64,000 nucleotides of DNA from Ignavibacteriota bacterium (GTDB taxonomy: Bacteria; Bacteroidota; Ignavibacteria; UBA10030), in NCBI GenBank assembly GCA_963727825.1, contig CAVSHO010000001.1, positions 192,001-256,000 of the forward strand. The letters run 5' to 3'. The stretch's first letter is position 1; every line of letters starts with the position of its first letter. The translations under genes were made by a program, and so were the position numbers. Positions 14,424-48,652 of the stretch are shown here, piece after piece. The notes beneath the pieces were generated by a model. That model worked only from the letters and a program-made list of their open reading frames with translations. It searched no databases and was not told the DNA's origin.

Positions 14424-15683
14424 TTATGCAGATTTCCGTTCTTCGTATAAGTAAACGGGGTCTTTCGCTTTGATGATAGTATCTTTAGTGATAATGCACT
14501 TCGATACATTTTCCCGAGAAGGCAAGTGGTACATTACATCGAGCATAACCGATTCAATGATAGAGCGGAGCGCACGAGCGCCTGTACCGCGTTCCATAGC
14601 TTTATCTACTACGGACTTAAGTGCGTTCTCTTCCAACTCCAACTCTACACCTTCCAGCGCAAAAAGTTTTTGGTACTGCTTCACGATTGCATTACGCGGC
14701 TGGGTAAGAATATTCAAAAGCGCCGCCTCATCAAGCGGATCAAGTGTAGCAGTGACAGGCAGGCGACCTACAAATTCTGGAATAAGTCCGTACTTCAGCA
14801 AGTCACCCGGTTCTACTTGTTGTAATAATTTTTCACGTGACTTGCTTTTTTTGCCTTTCAAATCAGCGCCGAAACCAACAGGATTTTGACTGATCCGGTG
14901 CTCTATGATTTTTTCTAATCCATCAAATGCACCGCCGCAAATAAATAAAATATTCCTTGTGTTGATGTTAATAAGACTTTGTTCCGGATGCTTTCGTCCG
15001 CCTTTTGGTGGAACGCCTGCGATTGTGCCTTCAAGAATCTTCAGCAGTGCTTGTTGTACACCTTCGCCGGAGACATCGCGCGTAATTGATGCGCTATCAC
15101 CTTTTCTTGCAATTTTATCGATTTCATCTATATAAACAATCCCACGTTCTGCTTTCTCAATATTGTAATCAGCGTTCTGTAATAGATATACAAGAATCGT
15201 TTCAACATCGTCACCCACATATCCGGCTTCGGTCAGTGTTGTCGCATCAGCAATTGCGAATGGAACATCAAGAATGCGAGCAAGTGTTTGCGCCAGTAGC
15301 GTCTTGCCGGTTCCAGTCGGGCCAACAAGCAAAATGTTGCTTTTTTCGATTTCAACGTCATCAAGATTTGACATCTGATCGCTGGCATCAATTCGTTTAT
15401 AATGATTGTACACAGCAACAGCAAGTGTACGTTTGGCTAAATCCTGACCTACCACAAATTCGTCGAGCGCTTTCTTAATATCAATTGGTGTAAGCGAGCG
15501 CCTGAAACCAAACCGCCGCGCATTAATCGCCGCCATATTATTTTTAATGATATCAACGGAGCTGGCAACGCAGAGATCGCAAATGTATACATCTGGTCCT
15601 GCGATGATACTGTTGACTTCTTCCGGTGTGCGCCCGCAAAAGGAACAGGCTATTTTTTCGCCCTGTCTAGGTTTTTGTGTCAT
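14424..15683 (-). CDS. clpX: ATP-dependent Clp protease ATPase subunit ClpX
   Basis: CSFCG zinc finger, [33 protein letters not shown]. Confidence 0.98.
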
Positions 15684-15725
15684 ATTATTTCCGGCTATTT
15701 GTAGCTGCCGGCACTTTACAAACGA

Positions 15726-16352
15726 TTACTTTTCTTTTTTCGTTTCGGCGGTTCGTTTCACGAGGATGTTGTCTATTAATCCGTATTCTTTTGCTTCAGA
15801 GGCGGCTAAGTAATAGTCGCGATCAGTATCTTTTTCAATCTGATCCAACGGACGTTCCGTATGTGCGGCAAGAATTTCATTTATCCGTTTCTTCGTTTTA
15901 AGAATTTCTTCTGCCTGAATGCTTATATCTGATGCAGTACCTTGCACGCCACCCCACGGCTGATGAATCATTACCCGCGCGTTTGGAAGTGCTGTACGTT
16001 TTCCTTTCGTTCCACCTGCTAGCAGCACAGCCGCCATACTTGCAGCCATACCTATACAGATGGTTGAAACATCTGGTCGAATATACTGCATCGTATCATA
16101 AATCGCAAGTCCGGCAGACACACTCCCGCCTGGACTGTTGATGTACAGGTGGATATCCTTATCCGGATCATCCGATTCAAGAAACAGCAATTGGGCAATT
16201 GTCAAACTGGCAACTGTGTCGTCGATCGGAGTGCCAAGAAATACGATGCGTTCTTTAAGCAATCGTGAAAAAATGTCGAACGACCGCTCACCACGGCCGG
16301 TCTGTTCCACGACAATTGGAACGAGCTGATTATAAATTTTCGGATATGCCAT
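15726..16352 (-). CDS. clpP: Clp protease proteolytic subunit
   Basis: [34 protein letters not shown]. Confidence 0.98.
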
Positions 16353-16375
16353 AATGTAATTTTCCTTCTAATCGC

Positions 16376-17641
16376 TTATACTTTTTCTGGAACTTCCTTG
16401 ATCTTCGAGGAGTTCACAAGAATCTTTAATAATTTATCACCGATTAACTTGTCCTTGATTTGGTCGGAGGATTTGTAGTAATTGATAAGGCGGTCTTTTG
16501 GAATTTTAATTTTAACGGATTCTTCTTCCGCCAACTTTTCGAGATCTTCGTCGGAAACGGTAACATTTTCTGCTTTGATTAATTCTTCACGTAGCAGCGC
16601 CCACTTTGCCTGATAGATTGCATAGGTGCGGTTCTCTTCTTTGAACTTTTCTTCGTTAAATTCGGATGGCAGTCGCTTATCAGGATATTCATTTTTAATT
16701 TCTTCCAACAATCCGTCGAGCACACTGCGAATAAGCGATTCCGGCACTTGAAATTCATGACGCCGGATAATTTCCGCAGTTAATGAATTGATTGCCTGCC
16801 GTTCACTTTTTTCTTTCCAGTAAGCAACAATCTCTTCTTTGATATTCGTGCGCAACGTCTCTACCGTATCGAATTTGTTTTTCGTGACTTTAGCAACAAA
16901 AGCTTTGTCTAATGTTGGTAATGTTACCTTCTCTATTTTTTTAACGATAATTTGTGTCTTAACGGTGTGCGTCTGTTCAGCATGTTTGTGATCAAACTGC
17001 ACAGAATATTCACCATTTTTCTTAGCTTCTTTCAATGCATTTTTAAACGGTTGTTCAAGTTGTTCATCGGCAAGATAAAAACGAACATTCTCGCTCTTCT
17101 TATCAATCAACGGTGCTCCGGTTTCATCTAAGTCCTGTAAAGTTACTGTGACGATGTGCTCTTGGGAAGTAACGACTTCGACCTCCTCCATCGCTGCGTT
17201 AGCTCGCTGTAAACGGATTAGTTCTTTTTCCACTTCGTCATCAGTGATCGTGTGAACGATTTTTTCTACTTCGATGCCCTTGTATTCTTTTACTATAATC
17301 TGCGGCCGGACATCAAATTGGATTTTACATCGAAAACTTTCACCATGTTTGTAATCCATATCAACAAGGGTAGGTTCGCCGATCGGTTTTAATTCTTTTT
17401 CCTTTACCGCCTGCCGATAAAATTCTGCGGCAATTTCATTAAGAGATTCATTCTCAATTAAATCACCATACAACTTTTTAATTATGTCAATCGGCACTTT
17501 ACCTTTTCGGAATCCGCGAATCTCAATCTTCTTCCGATATTCCAAATATGCTTTGTTGAAATGAGGTGATAGATCTTCCGGTGTAGCTATAATTTCTGCC
17601 GAACGCAGGACATCCGATAATGATTGAATAGTAACTTCCAC
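16376..17641 (-). CDS. tig: Trigger factor
   Basis: GFRKGKVP signature; GTG start at 17641 with aaggaag SD; upstream of clpP-clpX. Confidence 0.95.
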   Translation of the reverse strand: MEVTIQSLSDVLRSAEIIATPEDLSPHFNKAYLEYRKKIEIRGFRKGKVPIDIIKKLYGDLIENESLNEIAAEFYRQAVKEKELKPIGEPTLVDMDYKHGESFRCKIQFDVRPQIIVKEYKGIEVEKIVHTITDDEVEKELIRLQRANAAMEEVEVVTSQEHIVTVTLQDLDETGAPLIDKKSENVRFYLADEQLEQPFKNALKEAKKNGEYSVQFDHKHAEQTHTVKTQIIVKKIEKVTLPTLDKAFVAKVTKNKFDTVETLRTNIKEEIVAYWKEKSERQAINSLTAEIIRRHEFQVPESLIRSVLDGLLEEIKNEYPDKRLPSEFNEEKFKEENRTYAIYQAKWALLREELIKAENVTVSDEDLEKLAEEESVKIKIPKDRLINYYKSSDQIKDKLIGDKLLKILVNSSKIKEVPEKV

Positions 17642-17671
17642 GTAACTTCCTTTACATAATGATATGACCTG

Positions 17672-17850
17672 TAGGCACGAAGGAACTTGAACCCGCACGG
17701 ATTATCCATCCCGCAAAACTGCTGTGGGTAGAGGGGGAGTTGAACCCCCATGGATTACTCCACTAGCTCCTAAGGCTAGCGCGTCTGCCAGTTTCGCCAT
17801 CTACCCGAAATAGTTTTGCGGGACGCGTCTGCCAGTTTCGCCACGTGCCC
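17672..17850 (-). pseudogene. Split outer tRNA-Leu-like gene (5' half 17824-17850, 3' half 17672-17708) enclosing the intact tRNA-Leu
   Basis: GGGCACG...CGTGCCT-A acceptor; D-arm identical to the inner tRNA; TGGATAATCCGT variable arm; GCGGG-TTCAAGT-TCCTT weakened T-arm; anticodon arm replaced by 12-bp IR at 17709-17720/17812-17823. Confidence 0.85.
17725..17806 (-). tRNA. tRNA-Leu(TAG), intact, CCA not encoded
   Basis: GGGTAGA/TCTACCC acceptor, D-arm TGGCGAAACTGGCAGACGCG, CTAGC-CTTAGGA-GCTAG anticodon arm, variable arm, GGGGG-TTCAACT-CCCCC T-arm, discriminator A. Confidence 0.97.
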
Positions 17851-17910
17851 GTTGCGAAAAATGCCCAATAAGCTGGGCATTTTTCAAAATGCTTACAATT
17901 AGGCGTTTTT

Positions 17911-17939
17911 AATATAAGAACCGATTGAATGAAAAGCAA
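17911..17939 (-). promoter_or_regulatory. Putative sigma70 promoter for tRNA-tig-clpP-clpX
   Basis: TTGCTT-17 nt-TATATT on the minus strand. Confidence 0.6.
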
Positions 17940-17964
17940 AAAGGGATTCATAATGAATCCCTTT
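17938..17964 (-). terminator. Intrinsic terminator of the TPR gene
   Basis: aaagggattca-tta-tgaatcccttt-tt on the minus strand. Confidence 0.7.
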
Positions 17965-17990
17965 CCGTATCGCACTTTGAGAATTGAAAA

Positions 17991-19904
17991 CTACTTACCA
18001 GTTCGTTGAAGTTCATTTAGTTTCGTGAGGAAATCGACCGCCTCTTGTTTTGTCGGATCGAGACCAATAGCATTGTTAAAATACTCTCGCGCCTTCTGAT
18101 AATTCTTTACATTTTGATGCTCTCGGCCAAGTTGAATATTGGTTTTATAACTTTTAGGATTAAGTAAAAGAGCATGCTCGTAACACTGTATCGCACGCGC
18201 AGGATCAGCATCGCCGCCATATGCCACGCCAAGATCAAAATTGACTTTCCAGTAATCATTTCCTTTGGCAAGGGCAGTGGTCAGCACATTGATGATTTCT
18301 TTAAAATTACTCTGTTTGAGATAAAGATTACAACTTTCGCTATAGGCACTCAAGTACATAGTGTCTATTTGATAGGCGCGTTGAAATGAATAGTTAGCAC
18401 GTATCGGATCACCAGTGCGATTGTAAAACTTCCCCTGAGCAAAAAAGCCGTAAGCAAAATTCGGTGCAATAAGTGTGATTTGTTGATACTTATCCTTCGC
18501 ATTCTGAATGTCTTTTGCCTGCTCAAATTGCTCCGCTTCGTCGAACATCTTCATCACTTCCGATGAGATATGCTGTTCGTGGTTTGTTATGATTACACGG
18601 AGCATATCAAATCGGGCGATAATCTCTGGATCATAACACTTGCGAAATATTTCGACAATCTCTTGTTTTGCGCTGGTGAAATTGCCATAATAATAATCGT
18701 TCACTGCCTTAAGCATGGAATAGTAGGGCTGTGAAAACGAAATTGTATCTTTCTTCAGATTCGGCAAGAAATCAATTGGAAAAATTGGAATATGCGTCTG
18801 CCAACGTTCATTGCAAATCCGGATGAATGTCTCGTATGATCCGGTATCGTTGTATTTCGCTAATCGCGCTTGATAGTCTTCCGGAATCGCCATCTTTAAC
18901 TCTGTAGCAGTAGTATCGGCAAAATTGAGCGATGAAAATGCCGATGCCAATGTTTCAATCATGTTGATATACCGGTAGCCAATTTTACTTGTTGCAGATC
19001 CTTCGATAATCCATCGTATATTTTGGTCGTCCAGAGTGTGCTGAAGTGAATCCCGAAAGCTTGCGGCTTGAGCAAGAGAGATGCGGCATCTATCTAAAAT
19101 AGGTGCGACTGCTGTATCAAGCGAACCGACATTCCATTCGATACGTGGCAATGAATCAAGGATGTACTTGAACGTCGGCTTGAGACCGTCTACCAGTGCG
19201 ATTCGTGATTTTAAATCCGTTTGAACATTTGCAGCAGCTGATTGAAACGAGGCTGAGGTTTCGTTATATAAGTCTTCGAAGCATTGAGTGCGTTTAGATT
19301 TATATTCATCATACAGAGTAAAAATTTTGTAATTAGCATCACTTAAAATTTGTTCATATGAACCTATTGCTGATTTGAAGCGTTTTGCGACTACCGCGGT
19401 TTCTGCTTGCTTTGCAAGGTCGCTCACAATTGTGAAGCCAGGCCAAAATTCCTGAGGTACTTTAAACTCCACTTGATTCGTTGCTTCGTCAATCGGACAC
19501 TGAAATAAGAAAAGAAGATTGAGTTTGAAGGTTTTAGGAAATCCAAGCAAAATAGAGTTGTTCCCTCCAGCAATCAGTTCTCCTTTCCAAGCGATGGGAA
19601 TTTTCTTTTCGTCTTGATAGATGTTCACTCTGGAAAGTTGATCTTTTATAAAATCCTGATCAAGTTGCCAATCTTCCACAGATGTGACAAGAAAGTAAAA
19701 ATACTGTCCACTGTTAACATTGTCGCTGGTTAAAGGCAGTTGTCGATTCTCATTTGATAATTCGATCTTAACGGTGCGCGGTCCGCCAAGCCCAAATAAG
19801 CCGGACTTCGCTTTTATTTTCAATTGAACAGATGGAGCTTGCGCATTTAAAAGCGATGTAATGCAAAGGAGACCAGAGAGCAACGATAAAAATCTGGTAT
19901 TCAT
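17991..19904 (-). CDS. Secreted tetratricopeptide-repeat protein
   Basis: Signal peptide; C-terminal TPRs (A...Y..AL.LNP, A.EYF..AI.LDP). Confidence 0.8.
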   Translation of the reverse strand: MNTRFLSLLSGLLCITSLLNAQAPSVQLKIKAKSGLFGLGGPRTVKIELSNENRQLPLTSDNVNSGQYFYFLVTSVEDWQLDQDFIKDQLSRVNIYQDEKKIPIAWKGELIAGGNNSILLGFPKTFKLNLLFLFQCPIDEATNQVEFKVPQEFWPGFTIVSDLAKQAETAVVAKRFKSAIGSYEQILSDANYKIFTLYDEYKSKRTQCFEDLYNETSASFQSAAANVQTDLKSRIALVDGLKPTFKYILDSLPRIEWNVGSLDTAVAPILDRCRISLAQAASFRDSLQHTLDDQNIRWIIEGSATSKIGYRYINMIETLASAFSSLNFADTTATELKMAIPEDYQARLAKYNDTGSYETFIRICNERWQTHIPIFPIDFLPNLKKDTISFSQPYYSMLKAVNDYYYGNFTSAKQEIVEIFRKCYDPEIIARFDMLRVIITNHEQHISSEVMKMFDEAEQFEQAKDIQNAKDKYQQITLIAPNFAYGFFAQGKFYNRTGDPIRANYSFQRAYQIDTMYLSAYSESCNLYLKQSNFKEIINVLTTALAKGNDYWKVNFDLGVAYGGDADPARAIQCYEHALLLNPKSYKTNIQLGREHQNVKNYQKAREYFNNAIGLDPTKQEAVDFLTKLNELQRTGK

Positions 19905-20063
19905 TTGAAACCTCGGGCAATCAAAGTGAATATAAAAATCTAAATTCTTACGAGAAGAATATAGAAAAACAGAGCCGTAGATGCAACGATTCGTTCAGTC
20001 AACTCCTTGAATTCCTCCACATTTTTTGGTACATATAACATAAGTGCAAAAAGCGATTCATGC

Positions 20064-20087
20064 CCGTCCCGCCTTGTTGCGGGACGG
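20064..20087. repeat. GC-rich palindrome of the TCCCGC...GCGGGA type in the leader of the M50-lysA unit
   Basis: ccgtcccgc-cttgtt-gcgggacgg, perfect 9-bp stem. Confidence 0.6.
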
Positions 20088-20110
20088 ATTGTATCTGAAA
20101 GGATGTTTAA

Positions 20111-20785
20111 TTGGATTCTCTTTACATATTGCCGATTCTTCTTTTTTCCATCGTTGTGCACGAGGTAGCACATGGCTGGATGGCGTTGAGGCTTGGTGAT
20201 TCCACTGCGCGTGATTCCGGCAGATTGACACTCAATCCACTTCCTCACATTGACCCGATTGGTTCCATTGCTATTCCGCTCCTTTCATATTTTGCCGCTG
20301 GTTCTGTATTTATTGCATGGGCAAAACCAGTGCCGATAAATCCTGCAAACTTCCGCAATTTTCGCCGTGATGATATCTTGGTATCTATTATTGGACCGTT
20401 TTCCAATTTACTTGTCGCGTTTTTCTGCGCTGTGTTTTACGTTATTTCGGAACGTTTTTTTGGTCCATTAAACCTGATTGAAGGTAATTTTCAACGCGAG
20501 ATTGCGGCGTTCTTGATTCATATGTTTGCAGCTGGCATTACTTTGAATATATTTCTCGCAATTTTTAACTTAATTCCAGTGCCGCCGCTTGACGGTTCAC
20601 ATGTATTATCAGCTTTACTTCCGGCAGAAATAGCTGAGCGGTATCGGCAAATAGGATTCTTCGGGATACTACTTGTCATCTTGTTGATGCGGTTAGACCT
20701 GTTCCGGAATTTTATCTTCACGGTTGTAATGGCTGTACGTATTCCGTATGAAATCTTCATCCATCAATTTTTATTTACGGTTTGA
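20111..20785 (+). CDS. Site-2 protease (M50 family)
   Basis: HEVAH, GRLTLNP..HIDP.G, FNLIPVPPLDG. Confidence 0.95.
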   Translation: MDSLYILPILLFSIVVHEVAHGWMALRLGDSTARDSGRLTLNPLPHIDPIGSIAIPLLSYFAAGSVFIAWAKPVPINPANFRNFRRDDILVSIIGPFSNLLVAFFCAVFYVISERFFGPLNLIEGNFQREIAAFLIHMFAAGITLNIFLAIFNLIPVPPLDGSHVLSALLPAEIAERYRQIGFFGILLVILLMRLDLFRNFIFTVVMAVRIPYEIFIHQFLFTV

Positions 20786-20802
20786 TTTATTGAAACTTGC
20801 TT

Positions 20803-22071
20803 ATGGATTACATTGCCTATAAGGAAAACATTCTGTACTGCGAAGATATTCCGCTAAGCGAATTGGCTGAAGAGTACGGAACGCCGCTGTACGTGTACAG
20901 TAAAAACCGCATTATAGAAAAATATCGTTCTTTTGTTGGTGCATTGGGAGACGTTAGGTATCAAGTGTGCTATGCACTGAAGGCGAATGCCAATCATCAT
21001 ATATTAAAATTGCTTGCTACTGAAGGCGCGGGAGCGGATGTGGTTTCTGCAGGGGAATTATATTTGGCATTGAAAGCCGGGTTTTATCCAGAAAAAATTG
21101 TATTTGCAGGCGTGGGGAAACGAGAAGATGAAATCGAATTTGCATTAAAACAGAATATTTTTTCCTTCAATGTTGAGTCGGTATCAGAGTTACATACAAT
21201 TTCACGTGCAGCGCTGCGTGTAGGAAAGAAAGCTCGCATTTCACTACGCATTAATCCAGATATTGATGCACAAAGTCATCCGTACATCACTACTGGTTTG
21301 CAGTCGAGCAAGTTCGGAATTGAAGCATCGAAGGCGATAGAAGTGTACACGTATGCTGCAACGTTGTCGTCTTTGGAATTAGTGGGTATTCACACGCACA
21401 TTGGTTCACAAATCACGAAGGTAGAGCCGTTTGTTGCAACAGCTAACTATATTGTCGGGTTAGTCGGAAAATTACATGAAGCCGGTATCAATTTAACACA
21501 TATTGACTTTGGAGGCGGTTTTGGCGTTCAATACATTAATGTTGTTTCGCATGAGGCGATCCCACAAGAGGAAACATCGAACAACATCGTGCCAATTACT
21601 ACGGAATTTATTAAGGCGGTACTACCCATCCTGCAGACAACAGGTTGTTCTATCTGGATCGAACCTGGCCGTTCAATTATTGCAGATGCCGGCGTTTTGA
21701 TTACTCGTGTTATCTCCACAAAAGAAAATGCGATAAAGAAATTTGTCATTGTGGATAGTGGTATGAATGATTTAATACGACCCAGTCTCTATCAAGCGTA
21801 CCATCAAATTGTTCCTCTATCCATCAATACATACGAGAATGAAAAGGTGGATGTTGTAGGTCCAATCTGCGAGAGCGCCGATTTTTTTGCTCGGGATCGA
21901 TTGCTTGCAAAAAGCAATGCCGGAGATTATCTTGCGGTACTTACAACTGGCGCATATGGTTTTGTTTTAAGTTCTAATTACAATGGCCGGCCTCGTCCCG
22001 CAGAAATTCTTGTTATTGGAGATCGCGTTCGTATCATCCGCCCCCGACAGACTTTGGAAGAGTTGGAATAA
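20803..22071 (+). CDS. lysA: Diaminopimelate decarboxylase
   Basis: YALKAN, SKFGI, HIGSQ, DFGGGFG, EPGRSI, GPICES.D, GAYG...SSNYN. Confidence 0.97.
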   Translation: MDYIAYKENILYCEDIPLSELAEEYGTPLYVYSKNRIIEKYRSFVGALGDVRYQVCYALKANANHHILKLLATEGAGADVVSAGELYLALKAGFYPEKIVFAGVGKREDEIEFALKQNIFSFNVESVSELHTISRAALRVGKKARISLRINPDIDAQSHPYITTGLQSSKFGIEASKAIEVYTYAATLSSLELVGIHTHIGSQITKVEPFVATANYIVGLVGKLHEAGINLTHIDFGGGFGVQYINVVSHEAIPQEETSNNIVPITTEFIKAVLPILQTTGCSIWIEPGRSIIADAGVLITRVISTKENAIKKFVIVDSGMNDLIRPSLYQAYHQIVPLSINTYENEKVDVVGPICESADFFARDRLLAKSNAGDYLAVLTTGAYGFVLSSNYNGRPRPAEILVIGDRVRIIRPRQTLEELE

Positions 22072-47767: not shown

Positions 47768-48652
47768 ATGAAATCCGCATTTAATAAAAAGAATATCACT
47801 TCTCTTCCCAACACTCCCGGGGTCTATATTTTTTATGGCGTCGAAGACATTCTGCTGTACGTTGGCAAAAGTAAAACGATCCGCGCACGTGTTCGCTCGC
47901 ACTTTGCCGCTCGAGACGAACGCTGGTTGACAAAGCGCATTTGCCGCATCGAAGTTCGAGAAACAGCCGGCGAGCTTGGCGCGCTTTTGTTAGAATCCCG
48001 GCTCATTAAAGAATTACGGCCGATGTACAATGTGCGTTCAAGACAGCCGCGGCGAATTATTATTGCAAGACGCGTAGATAATGAACAAGGATACACAACG
48101 GTCAAATTGGAAGCAGTAGACTATCTCGATATCAAACCGGACTCGCCCATACTCGGTATCTTCAAACATAAAACGCAGGCAAAGGAATTTCTTGATACGG
48201 TCGCCAAAACGCACAGGCTGTGTCCGAAACTTTTACGATTAGAAAATTCCGGCAGTTATTGCTTCTCGTACCACCTTGGACAATGTGACGGCGCCTGTAT
48301 GGGAGAAGAAGATGTTACAACTTACAATGCACGTGTGGAAGCGGCATTTGAAGCGCGGCGCATTATTGCGTGGCCTTTTAATGGTCCAGTAACTATAGAG
48401 GAAATCTCGAAGGATAAAAAACTGCGCGAAATATTTGTGATTGATAACTGGTGTTTAATCGAGAGCTACAAAGGCGACTGTAATACCGGAAAGAAATTCC
48501 GGGTATCGCAGAAATCTTCTCTGCATCGCTTTGATTACGACAGCTACAAAATCCTTTTCAGCTATGTGATGGAGGAGGGAAATAAAGTCAAGATAAAAAA
48601 ACAAACAAGTCAACACGCCAATAAAATTCGCACGCCATTAGAGACAGTCTAA
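47768..48652 (+). CDS. GIY-YIG nuclease of UvrC/Cho N-terminal type
   Basis: 'LP.TPGVY.FY......LYVGKS...R.RV.SHF', 'GELGALLLESRLIKEL.P.YN', Cys cluster 'C..YHLG.C.GAC.G.E'. Confidence 0.88.
   Translation: MKSAFNKKNITSLPNTPGVYIFYGVEDILLYVGKSKTIRARVRSHFAARDERWLTKRICRIEVRETAGELGALLLESRLIKELRPMYNVRSRQPRRIIIARRVDNEQGYTTVKLEAVDYLDIKPDSPILGIFKHKTQAKEFLDTVAKTHRLCPKLLRLENSGSYCFSYHLGQCDGACMGEEDVTTYNARVEAAFEARRIIAWPFNGPVTIEEISKDKKLREIFVIDNWCLIESYKGDCNTGKKFRVSQKSSLHRFDYDSYKILFSYVMEEGNKVKIKKQTSQHANKIRTPLETV

Follow-up and report, generated by a model that had tools for sequence, protein, structure and literature searches.

A replacement leucine tRNA gene nested inside the remains of a dead tRNA-Leu gene in Ignavibacteriota

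A working leucine tRNA gene in an Ignavibacteriota bacterium (assembly GCA_963727825.1, contig CAVSHO010000001.1, positions 192,001 to 256,000) sits exactly where the anticodon arm of an older, now dead copy of the same tRNA used to be, and comparison with related bacteria shows that this kill-and-replace insertion has happened repeatedly, leaving several concentric shells of dead tRNA halves. In the window, by which we mean the whole 64,000-nt stretch that was analysed and in which all coordinates below are given, the minus strand from 17850 to 17672 holds the two halves of a tRNA-Leu whose anticodon arm (tRNA positions 27–43) is replaced by a perfect 12-bp inverted repeat, which in turn encloses a complete tRNA-Leu(UAG), the only one in the genome. 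The arrangement described in the earlier note proved correct to the base, whereas its interpretation was only partly supported. The parts, read on the minus strand, are as follows.

17824..17850 (minus), 5′ half of the outer (relic) tRNA-Leu, 27 nt: acceptor 5′ strand GGGCACG, U8 and the D arm, up to tRNA position 26.
17812..17823 (minus), 5′ arm of the inverted repeat (TCCCGCAAAACT), in which the first 8 nt, TCCCGCAA, are constant across lineages and the rest varies, as judged from 21 distinct layers.
17807..17811 (minus), 5-nt leader (ATTTC) between the helix and the inner tRNA; the same leader is present in 5 nested genomes of the genus.
17725..17806 (minus), inner, functional tRNA-Leu(UAG), acceptor GGGTAGA/TCTACCC, 1 of 45 tRNAs in the genome; it is identical in 5 nested genomes of the genus and differs by 1–2 nt in 3 more.
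17721..17724 (minus), 4-nt trailer (CAGC).
17709..17720 (minus), 3′ arm of the inverted repeat (AGTTTTGCGGGA).
17672..17708 (minus), 3′ half of the outer (relic) tRNA-Leu: variable arm, T arm, acceptor 3′ strand CGTGCCT and discriminator A, with 5–6 changes relative to the functional orthologue.
16376..17641 (minus), tig (trigger factor), with a GTG start at 17641, 30 nt downstream of the 3′ end of the relic; Pfam Trigger_N matches from residue 1, Trigger_C is also matched, and CLP_protease and ClpX domains are found in the next two ORFs (clpP and clpX).

The inner gene was identified by ARAGORN as tRNA-Leu(tag) at 17724–17806, and it scored 56.5 bits against the Rfam tRNA family RF00005 (gathering score 29; model positions 1–71). 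A repeat search recovered, in addition to the perfect 12-bp inverted repeat, direct repeats of 28 nt (89%) and 36 nt (72%) between the inner and outer halves. The details given in the earlier note hold: the two tRNAs share an identical 20-nt D-arm stretch, both are preceded by C and followed by CAG, their acceptor stems differ by compensatory changes (GGGCACG/CGTGCCT against GGGTAGA/TCTACCC), and the outer T stem has one mismatch and two G-U pairs, although one of these defects, the 50:64 mismatch, is already present in the functional orthologue. RNAfold recovers the nested fold, consisting of the outer acceptor stem, a 14-pair helix and the inner cloverleaf, with an MFE of −77.7 kcal/mol (z = −4.04), and 0 of 200 shuffled sequences folded as well. 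That the outer halves are more than a chance resemblance is shown by the 5′ half, which is identical at 27 of 27 positions to the functional un-nested orthologue of the genus, by the 3′ half, which differs from it at 5–6 of 38 positions, and by recurrence of the arrangement in independent assemblies.

The outer gene is no longer recognizable as a tRNA by itself. The Rfam search returned no second tRNA match at E up to 1 in 15000–21000, and ARAGORN found only the inner gene, even with its intron option. Deletion of 17721–17811, a test that had been set beforehand, likewise yielded 0 genes, because it leaves a hairpin without a loop. However, when the inner anticodon arm was spliced in by script, the two outer halves were called tRNA-Leu(tag) by ARAGORN, indicating that the shell is a tRNA body.

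The un-nested ancestral state is preserved in close relatives. Among 16 genomes of the genus, 9 carry the nest, while 7 carry a single GGGCACG-type tRNA-Leu(UAG) between the same flanks. The six functional un-nested copies of clade B differ from one another only in one V-loop base (the single clade-A copy, in genome G001, is of the clade-A type), whereas the outer 5′ halves of nested loci carry 0, 1, 1, 1, 2, 5 and 5 changes of 27 and the outer 3′ halves carry 1–6 changes of 38, or T-loop insertions, as expected of relaxed constraint. On a tig tree of 15 of the 16 loci, nested and un-nested species interleave, and the state needs at least 4 changes; a tree holding the nested species together is rejected (lnL −522.9, p-AU 2.5e-89), although the group used in the AU test was named after the tree had been seen. 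The tree cannot tell gains from losses, recombination of the locus among species would blur it, and un-nesting by gene conversion from the inner tRNA cannot be excluded. The outer variable arm follows the host clade, while the cassette is the same.

These comparisons also bear on the possibility that two tRNA-Leu alleles of a mixed population were misjoined in this genome, a metagenome-assembled genome with 6.55% estimated contamination. The nest is found in 9 of 16 genomes of the genus, including a one-contig assembly (G015), in a record titled chromosome-level (locus L031) and in JGI metagenome contigs. Logan contigs of other runs bridge both junctions (X3 records 12, 16 and 17; X14 records 6 and 8); they include DNA contigs of two other studies and contigs of an RNA library, although no single piece spans the whole 701 nt and stretches without cover say nothing. 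Parts of the locus are also present in metagenomic runs from peat and freshwater sediment. As far as contigs can show, an assembly artefact is refuted.

The same junction (...GACGCG|TCCCGCAA ... TTGCGGGA|TGG) is found at other loci of the Ignavibacteriales, with the inner and outer tRNA types swapped. In contigs representing one genome per species, 11 of 12 hits are tRNA-Leu nests, as are 9 of 9 metagenome hits. GGGCACG sits inside GGGTAGA at loci L023 and L040; L034 has GGGCACG inside GGGTAGA inside GGGCACG, plus a fourth 3′ remnant; L041, L078 and L079 have three layers; and L077 has the same junction around a tRNA-Leu(CAA). In every layer examined, the junctions lie at tRNA positions 26|27 and 43|44. 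Intact junctions are nevertheless rare. An exact two-sided pattern matched 7 of 401 genomes of a class-wide sample, with 1 control hit, and one of the 7 (L083) lies inside a coding region without a tRNA and is due to chance, leaving 6 real cases; L033 and L068, from the other searches, are also chance hits. A looser survey of the same class, using the 17-mer junction with 2 mismatches, gave 138 of 401 genomes, but because the reversed-pattern control hit about as often, it was discarded as noise. The junction had 0 matches in viral contigs, which does not show its absence from phages.

We therefore favor, with reasonable though not full confidence, a model in which this locus records a kill-and-replace event at an essential single-copy tRNA gene, in agreement with the first of two alternatives in the earlier note, that a mini-element bounded by inverted repeats and carrying a replacement tRNA took over the anticodon arm of the ancestral tig-linked tRNA-Leu. 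We consider our analysis to have shown that the ancestral tRNA-Leu(UAG), with acceptor GGGCACG, had exactly its anticodon arm (positions 27–43, 17 nt) replaced by a compact, protein-less cassette of 115 nt, composed of a 12-bp inverted repeat (constant TCCCGCAA/TTGCGGGA plus a lineage-specific extension), a short leader, a complete foreign tRNA-Leu(UAG) with acceptor GGGTAGA and a short trailer; that the inner tRNA now does the decoding while the two outer halves form a decaying pseudogene; and that the event is recurrent and horizontally mobile in Ignavibacteriales, since the cassette sits in different host backgrounds within the genus, inner and outer types are swapped in other genera, and new cassettes have gone into the anticodon arm of earlier cargo to build concentric shells. 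Other elements of the model are inferences: that the cargo must be a tRNA-Leu, because the insertion destroys the resident gene; that nests of unlike acceptor types persist because recombination between the repeated D arms would make a dead hybrid; and that insertion is directed at the anticodon-arm hairpin rather than at a flanking sequence, perhaps by homing-like repair of a break in the anticodon-arm DNA or by a hairpin-handling enzyme supplied in trans, for which the small GIY-YIG nucleases that flank many tRNA genes here, or the Y1 (IS200/RAYT-type) transposases, would be candidates. Several findings weigh against a dedicated element. No enzyme, free or circular cassette, or donor form was found; the cassette has no ORF; this genome holds only the one copy, unlike a typical transposon; and no known transposition chemistry removes exactly 17 nt of target.

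The second alternative in the earlier note, that processing releases a two-piece, anticodon-less tRNA-like RNA acting as a decoy or mRNA leader, is not supported as a function. A functional shell, held together by the 12-bp helix and the acceptor stem, could in principle serve as an RNase P/Z punctuation mark that releases the inner tRNA and defines the 5′ end of the tig-clpP-clpX mRNA, or as a decoy, and the nested MFE fold and the proximity of the tig start are compatible with this idea. Hairpin insertions in pseudo-tRNAs of this genome also mostly sit at the loops or arms of the cloverleaf. Furthermore, the helix covaries between lineages, with G-U pairs tolerated: 17 of 21 distinct layers have at least 3 contiguous pairs beyond the constant 8 bp, against 22.9% of 376 non-cognate arm combinations, although the 21 layers are not independent, as four come from the one cassette lineage of this genus. 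This covariation shows selection on pairing, but its purpose is only inferred and could be mobility, or RNA folding and processing. Contigs of an RNA library bridge the inner–outer junctions, but because they come from a relative (6–9 other letters) and may represent carried-over DNA, they are only a weak hint of the plausible co-transcription of the shell with the inner tRNA. A sigma-70 scan found no minus-strand promoter between the upstream terminator and the nest, from which we draw nothing, as the consensus may not fit this phylum. In contrast, 7 of 16 genomes of the genus do without the shell, and where it is present it accumulates changes at universally conserved tRNA positions, namely the G in the D-loop GG (L003 and L004) and U8 (L002). 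T-loop insertions of 30 nt or more occur in L005–L007, the 5′ half is lost in L010, and the helix decays in the older nests L005–L007 while the inner tRNA stays intact, so that the helix is not needed for the resident tRNA. We consider a functional shell unlikely.

A further possibility is that the halves are scars of ordinary islands or prophages, left by successive integrase-mediated integrations and deletions at this tRNA, or by a decayed element of the tRNA-dependent lysogeny type. The islands and prophages that target tRNA genes and rebuild the tRNA from their attP, in anticodon-loop and T-loop classes, use the same target gene and even the same sublocation, the anticodon arm, and leave displaced tRNA fragments. 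This tRNA is indeed an island target: in one genome of the genus (G004), a 48-kb insertion follows the inner anticodon loop, with a tyrosine integrase (PF00589, E 3.8e-27) at its edge and a Prim-Pol/VapE gene. Two other genomes (G013 and G019) have island-like ends just upstream of the tRNA, and several other tRNAs of the genome under study have one-sided partial copies. However, the G004 island leaves a one-sided 39-nt copy that keeps the anticodon stem and loop, with kilobases of island DNA, whereas in the nest both halves are present, 17 nt of the host are missing, a complete foreign tRNA is found, and only 17 nt and 16 nt lie between the inner tRNA and the outer halves. No common core is duplicated at the two junctions, the 21 distinct layers whose arms were extracted share one junction, and none of the roughly 20 nest loci has more than about 60 nt besides the tRNA between the arms. 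The earlier note was thus right that this is not the usual integrase att pattern. In the tRNA-dependent lysogeny of actinobacteriophages (Guerrero-Bustamante and Hatfull 2024, PMC10865867), an incoming element likewise disrupts an essential host tRNA gene without rebuilding it and carries a replacement, and at the present locus the destroyed outer gene and a same-isotype inner tRNA fit this description. There, however, the element is a whole prophage with a tyrosine integrase and a ~10-bp common core, and nothing is removed from the host, while here the insert is 113–160 nt with no gene but the tRNA, exactly the anticodon arm is missing, the ends are an inverted repeat and events stack concentrically; no prophage DNA is present in this or in about 20 other nest loci. 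We consider an island or prophage origin improbable.

Alternatively, there may be no dedicated mobility, and a nested allele created by a single ancient accident may have spread and stacked only by homologous or homeologous recombination through the conserved D and T arms (natural transformation, gene conversion), with occasional un-nesting by conversion from the inner tRNA. The constant TCCCGCAA/TTGCGGGA ends look inherited by descent, the 20-nt D-arm stretch is identical in inner, outer and un-nested genes, and interleaving of nested and un-nested alleles in the genus is as expected if alleles are exchanged. Yet the outer variable arm starts 0 nt from the junction and is host-clade specific, and outer D loops also differ between hosts of one cassette lineage (L034, L037, L039). 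No flanking marker is co-converted, and the 3′ crossover would have to fall within about 3 nt. In L077 the inner and outer variable and T arms share little sequence. Finally, pseudo-copies of tRNA-Gln and tRNA-Ser(UGA) in this genome, with different flanks, have exactly positions 27–43 replaced by the same hairpin, which argues for a structure-directed process. We consider recombination alone an unlikely explanation.

The hairpin is a recurrent entity. TCCCGC...GCGGGA hairpins number 45 against about 4 expected in this genome, and the same TCCCG...CGGGA hairpin replaces the anticodon arms of other pseudo-tRNAs, two of them at loci with small GIY-YIG genes. In this respect the cassette recalls MITEs and REPINs, which are protein-less elements bounded by inverted repeats and moved in trans, REPINs by RAYT/Y1 transposases: the size is similar (about 115 nt), there are terminal inverted repeats with compensatory variation and no ORF, and the genome has 9 Y1_Tnp matches. 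It differs in being a single copy at one specific site (the 12-nt arm with up to 1 mismatch next to a D arm occurs once in the 3.12-Mb genome), with no target-site duplication at the junctions, a 17-nt target deletion and a functional gene as cargo. Homing elements in tRNA genes, such as the group I intron of cyanobacterial tRNA-Leu(UAA), and freestanding GIY-YIG homing endonucleases share with the nest the precise occupancy of one site in a conserved gene, presence/absence polymorphism among close relatives and repeated invasion, and small GIY-YIG genes flank many tRNA genes in this genome, which has 14 GIY-YIG matches, although nothing links these or the Y1_Tnp matches to the cassette. Here, however, nothing is spliced, the host gene is replaced rather than restored, the cassette holds no endonuclease gene, and the cargo carries the same anticodon arm as the target, so that it can be invaded again. 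In the split tRNA genes of archaea (Nanoarchaeum split tRNAs with complementary leaders), two halves are likewise brought together by a 12–14-bp complementary helix placed at the anticodon stem, but they are joined into a decoding tRNA by the splicing endonuclease at a bulge-helix-bulge, whereas in this bacterium the helix is continuous, no anticodon loop exists and the halves decay.

A more speculative reading, which we regard as possible but less likely than not, is that this is a new kind of selfish element, an anticodon-arm swap cassette, in which a REP-like TCCCG...CGGGA hairpin would replace, by structure rather than by flanking sequence, the anticodon arm of a tRNA gene, and could invade an essential single-copy gene when its loop carries a replacement tRNA. 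Because the cargo presents the same target again, invasions would stack into a readable sequence of layers, and they may also drive the unusual acceptor-stem diversity of tRNA-Leu(UAG) in Ignavibacteriales. In this view, the small GIY-YIG genes that flank 10 of 14 matched sites next to tRNA genes, or the Y1 transposases, would supply the nuclease in trans.

Literature searches found no description of a tRNA gene nested in a tRNA gene, or of GIY-YIG genes flanking bacterial tRNA genes. If our reading holds, it shows a previously undescribed way in which an essential tRNA gene is turned over, neither mutated nor duplicated but overwritten from within by a 115-nt cassette that brings its own replacement. 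The concentric shells would be a physical record of successive replacements at one locus, making tRNA gene flow between species directly readable, and they offer a candidate explanation for why orthologous tRNA-Leu(UAG) genes of one bacterial order carry so many acceptor stems. The reading also points to a hairpin-directed DNA insertion activity, precise to the base and with no known enzyme, and links it to a wider population of mini-elements around tRNA genes in these genomes, comprising GIY-YIG genes and hairpin-bearing pseudo-tRNAs. For annotation, it warns that tRNA halves next to a tRNA need not be att sites.

Other origins for the structure were considered and set aside. The arms do not fit the core motifs of an integron attC site, and there is no bulge-helix-bulge of the kind required by an archaeal-type intron. 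Derivation of the outer gene from another leucine isoacceptor was rejected because none of the 5 other tRNA-Leu genes (6 in all) has a TCCCG anticodon stem. Self-duplication of the resident tRNA was rejected as well, since the inner gene differs from the outer at 12 or more positions, whereas un-nested relatives equal the outer.

On the minus strand, the window reads as follows:

17850-17824, minus strand: GGGCACG plus a D arm
17823-17812, minus strand: TCCCGCAAAACT
17811-17807, minus strand: ATTTC
17806-17725, minus strand: a complete tRNA-Leu(UAG)
17724-17721, minus strand: CAGC
17720-17709, minus strand: AGTTTTGCGGGA
17708-17672, minus strand: a long variable arm, a T arm, CGTGCCT and A

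ARAGORN finds one tRNA in the 64-kb window, the inner one, which Rfam scores at 56.5 bits, with no second tRNA reported at E up to 1. This is the only tRNA-Leu(UAG) among the 45 tRNA genes of the 3.12-Mb genome. The predicted fold of the 183-nt stretch is the nested one, consisting of the outer acceptor stem, a 14-pair helix and the inner cloverleaf (z = -4.04). Downstream, tig starts with GTG at 17641 and is followed by clpP and clpX. Upstream, at 17856-17885 on the minus strand and at the same place in eight further loci (L024, L027, L028, L034, L037, L076, L079 and L080), a hairpin followed by a U run sits between a conserved TATATT-like motif and the tRNA-Leu, in many genera, and may be a terminator or attenuator just upstream of the tRNA-tig unit. 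The earlier note had described a complete tRNA-Leu lying within the split halves of another, and its observation is confirmed; every detail it gave is correct.

Comparison with relatives shows that the outer halves are a former tRNA gene. In 7 of the 16 genomes of the genus sample, a single tRNA-Leu(UAG) with the acceptor GGGCACG lies between the same upstream hairpin and the same tig leader. The outer 5′ half in the window is identical to that gene at 27 of 27 positions, while the outer 3′ half differs from it at 5-6 of 38 positions, and the 17 nt between them (CTAGCCTTAGGAGCTAG, tRNA positions 27-43) are missing and replaced by the cassette. When the outer halves were joined in silico to the inner anticodon arm, ARAGORN called the product tRNA-Leu(tag), and a tRNA was still called when only the first 7 nt after TCCCG were supplied as a loop. 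In contrast, deletion of 17721-17811, which had been proposed beforehand as a test, leaves a loop-less hairpin and gives no call.

The arrangement is real and polymorphic. Nine of the 16 genomes are nested, including a one-contig assembly (G015) and a genome in which the inner tRNA is in addition split by a 48-kb island (G004). Logan contigs of other studies bridge both junctions, as do two contigs of a metatranscriptome library, the latter being a weak hint that the shell is co-transcribed. In a tree of the tig flank built from 15 of the 16 loci, leaving out G004, nested and un-nested species interleave and at least 4 changes of state are needed. A tree in which the nested species are held together is rejected (p-AU 2.5e-89), although that group was named after the tree had been seen. 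The outer variable arm is of the host clade's own type in both clades, while the cassette (arms, ATTTC leader, cargo and CAG trailer) is the same, so the cassette has entered, or left, different backgrounds with base precision.

The note had offered two interpretations, namely that a cassette carrying a replacement tRNA took over the anticodon arm of the ancestral gene, or that the outer halves form a functional two-piece RNA. Its interpretation is partly supported: the replacement cassette is supported, while the functional two-piece RNA is not, because the shell decays. While the six functional un-nested copies of clade B differ only in one variable-loop base, the outer 5′ halves carry 0, 1, 1, 1, 2, 5 and 5 changes of 27, which include the conserved D-loop G and U8. 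Outer T loops carry insertions of 30 nt or more at three nested loci of the genus (L005-L007), and at a fourth (L010) the 5′ half is unrecognisable. The helix is perfect or nearly so in nested loci L001-L004 and broken in L005-L007, whereas the inner tRNA is identical in 5 genomes and differs by 1-2 nt in 3. These patterns argue against a lasting function for the shell or the helix at a resident locus.

The same event is found elsewhere, and in layers. A scan of one genome per species (185,579 species) for the 23-mer comprising the D arm and the junction gave 12 loci, 11 of which are tRNA-Leu nests in records titled Ignavibacteriota, Ignavibacteriales or Bacteroidota MAGs, and a metagenome scan gave 9 of 9. 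Every layer examined has the junction ...GACGCG|TCCCGCAA and TTGCGGGA|TGG. In loci L023/L040 the roles are swapped relative to the window, with GGGCACG inside GGGTAGA, while locus L034 has GGGCACG inside GGGTAGA inside GGGCACG, with a fourth 3′ remnant outside. Loci L041, L078/L081 and L079 have three layers each, and another pair occurs in both orders, GGGCGGA-in-GGGCATG and GGGCATG-in-GGGCGGA. Locus L082, from another family of the class, has the outer acceptor GCGAGAG. In L077, a 56-kb metagenome contig, the same arms surround a tRNA-Leu(CAA) inside another Leu-like tRNA; outside this nest (around locus positions 1150-1450) lie a further 5′ half with a D-loop insertion and an exact 61-nt copy of the 3′ part of the inner tRNA, a mix of nest and att-like duplication. 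Intact two-sided junctions are rare, with 6 real cases in the 401 genomes of the class sample, although more decayed remnants flank the tRNA in other genera.

The first 8 bp of the arms (TCCCGCAA/TTGCGGGA) are constant, while the next 3-8 positions differ between lineages but stay paired.

Paired extensions beyond the constant part of the arms (5′ extension, 3′ extension)
AACT, AGTT
ACGC, GCGT
GTGT, ACAC
ATG, CAT
ATACA, TGTAT
CGC, GCG

Of 21 distinct layers, 17 have at least 3 contiguous extra pairs, against 22.9% of 376 non-cognate combinations, although the layers are not independent and four are from this genus. Arm type goes with cargo type (ACGC with GGGCACG in loci L034, L037 and L039), suggestive of cassette lineages. 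Leaders are 4-60 nt and trailers are 0-13 nt, mostly 3-6. A role for the pairing is an inference: because pairing is kept between lineages but lost in old resident copies, it may matter for the spread of the cassette rather than for expression of the tRNA.

The nest belongs to a wider population of mini-elements that live in tRNA genes. In this genome, hairpins with the stem TCCCGC/GCGGGA number 45 against about 4 expected, and those with CCCGCC/GGCGGG number 27 against 2; several are repeated units, for example GTCACTCCCGCGTACGCGGGAGTC at 5 places, and look like a REP family. There are also 9 Y1_Tnp (PF01797) matches. Pseudo-copies of tRNA-Gln(UUG) (contig C10, 74845-75160, and loci L092-L107) have exactly positions 27-43 replaced by TCCCGC-NNN-GCGGGA, with flanks unlike those of tRNA-Leu. 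Among the 16 genomes, this locus occurs in empty, one-sided (upstream-only) and two-sided states, and one genome (G006) has a full GIY-YIG ORF after the tRNA. A pseudo-copy of tRNA-Ser(UGA) shows the same exact replacement. A second small insertion family is represented by a ~55-nt double-hairpin module of the form TCCG-hairpin-CGAGATC-hairpin-CGGA, inserted in the loops of pseudo-copies of tRNA-Ser and tRNA-Asn (C7:93860-93950, C7:94160-94220, C7:94860-94920 and C12:44680-44740).

Of 14 GIY-YIG matches in this genome, 10 lie directly beside tRNA genes (Leu-CAG twice, Ser-GCU, the Ser-UGA/GCU spacer, Gln, Asp, Leu-CAA, Ser-GGA, Pro-CGG and Pro-GGG), and most have a partial tRNA copy bearing hairpin insertions on the far side of the ORF, which looks like a family of mini-elements living in tRNA genes. 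At C9:166610-167386, outside the window, tRNA-Leu(CAG) is preceded by two tandem 346-nt units, each of which holds the first ~31 nt of the tRNA, with a 19-nt palindrome inserted after GGCAGAC, plus an 83-aa GIY-YIG ORF, the one that was checked against Pfam (PF01541, E 1.2e-17). Within the window, a weak GIY-YIG match (31 bits) lies inside a 300-aa open frame at 47816-48031 (C1:239816-240031). Our analysis did not link any of these enzymes to formation of the junction.

The arrangement, its recurrence and its layering appear to be new. Literature searches found no description of a tRNA gene nested in a tRNA gene, or of GIY-YIG genes flanking bacterial tRNA genes. In tRNA-dependent lysogeny (PMC10865867), the logic of destroying the host tRNA and bringing a replacement is shared, but a whole prophage is involved and no host bases are lost. 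The features of a MITE or REPIN are partly present here, in that there are inverted repeats and no ORF, but the defining ones, many copies and a target duplication, are absent. Likewise, homing is resembled in the use of one site and in the polymorphism, but there is no endonuclease gene and nothing is spliced.

Ordinary integrase islands hit this very tRNA in G004, where a 48-kb insertion (C55:69044-117148; loci L008, L089 and L090) lies after the anticodon loop of the inner tRNA, with a tyrosine integrase (PF00589) at its left edge and a Prim-Pol/VapE-like gene and a DUF3644 gene inside. Such islands differ from the nest in leaving a one-sided copy, here a 39-nt direct repeat of the tRNA 5′ part, that keeps the anticodon stem and loop. 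Two other genomes of the sample (G013 and G019) have similar island ends just upstream of their tRNA-Leu(UAG). In the genome studied here, copies of positions 1-55 of tRNA-Arg(ACG), tRNA-Arg(CCG) and tRNA-Pro(UGG) (C11:156478-156532, C11:136006-136060 and C3:21236-21291) are each followed by similar sequence (AAAAAGC...TTTCAATTTCT...) and are probably ends of related islands that target the T loop.
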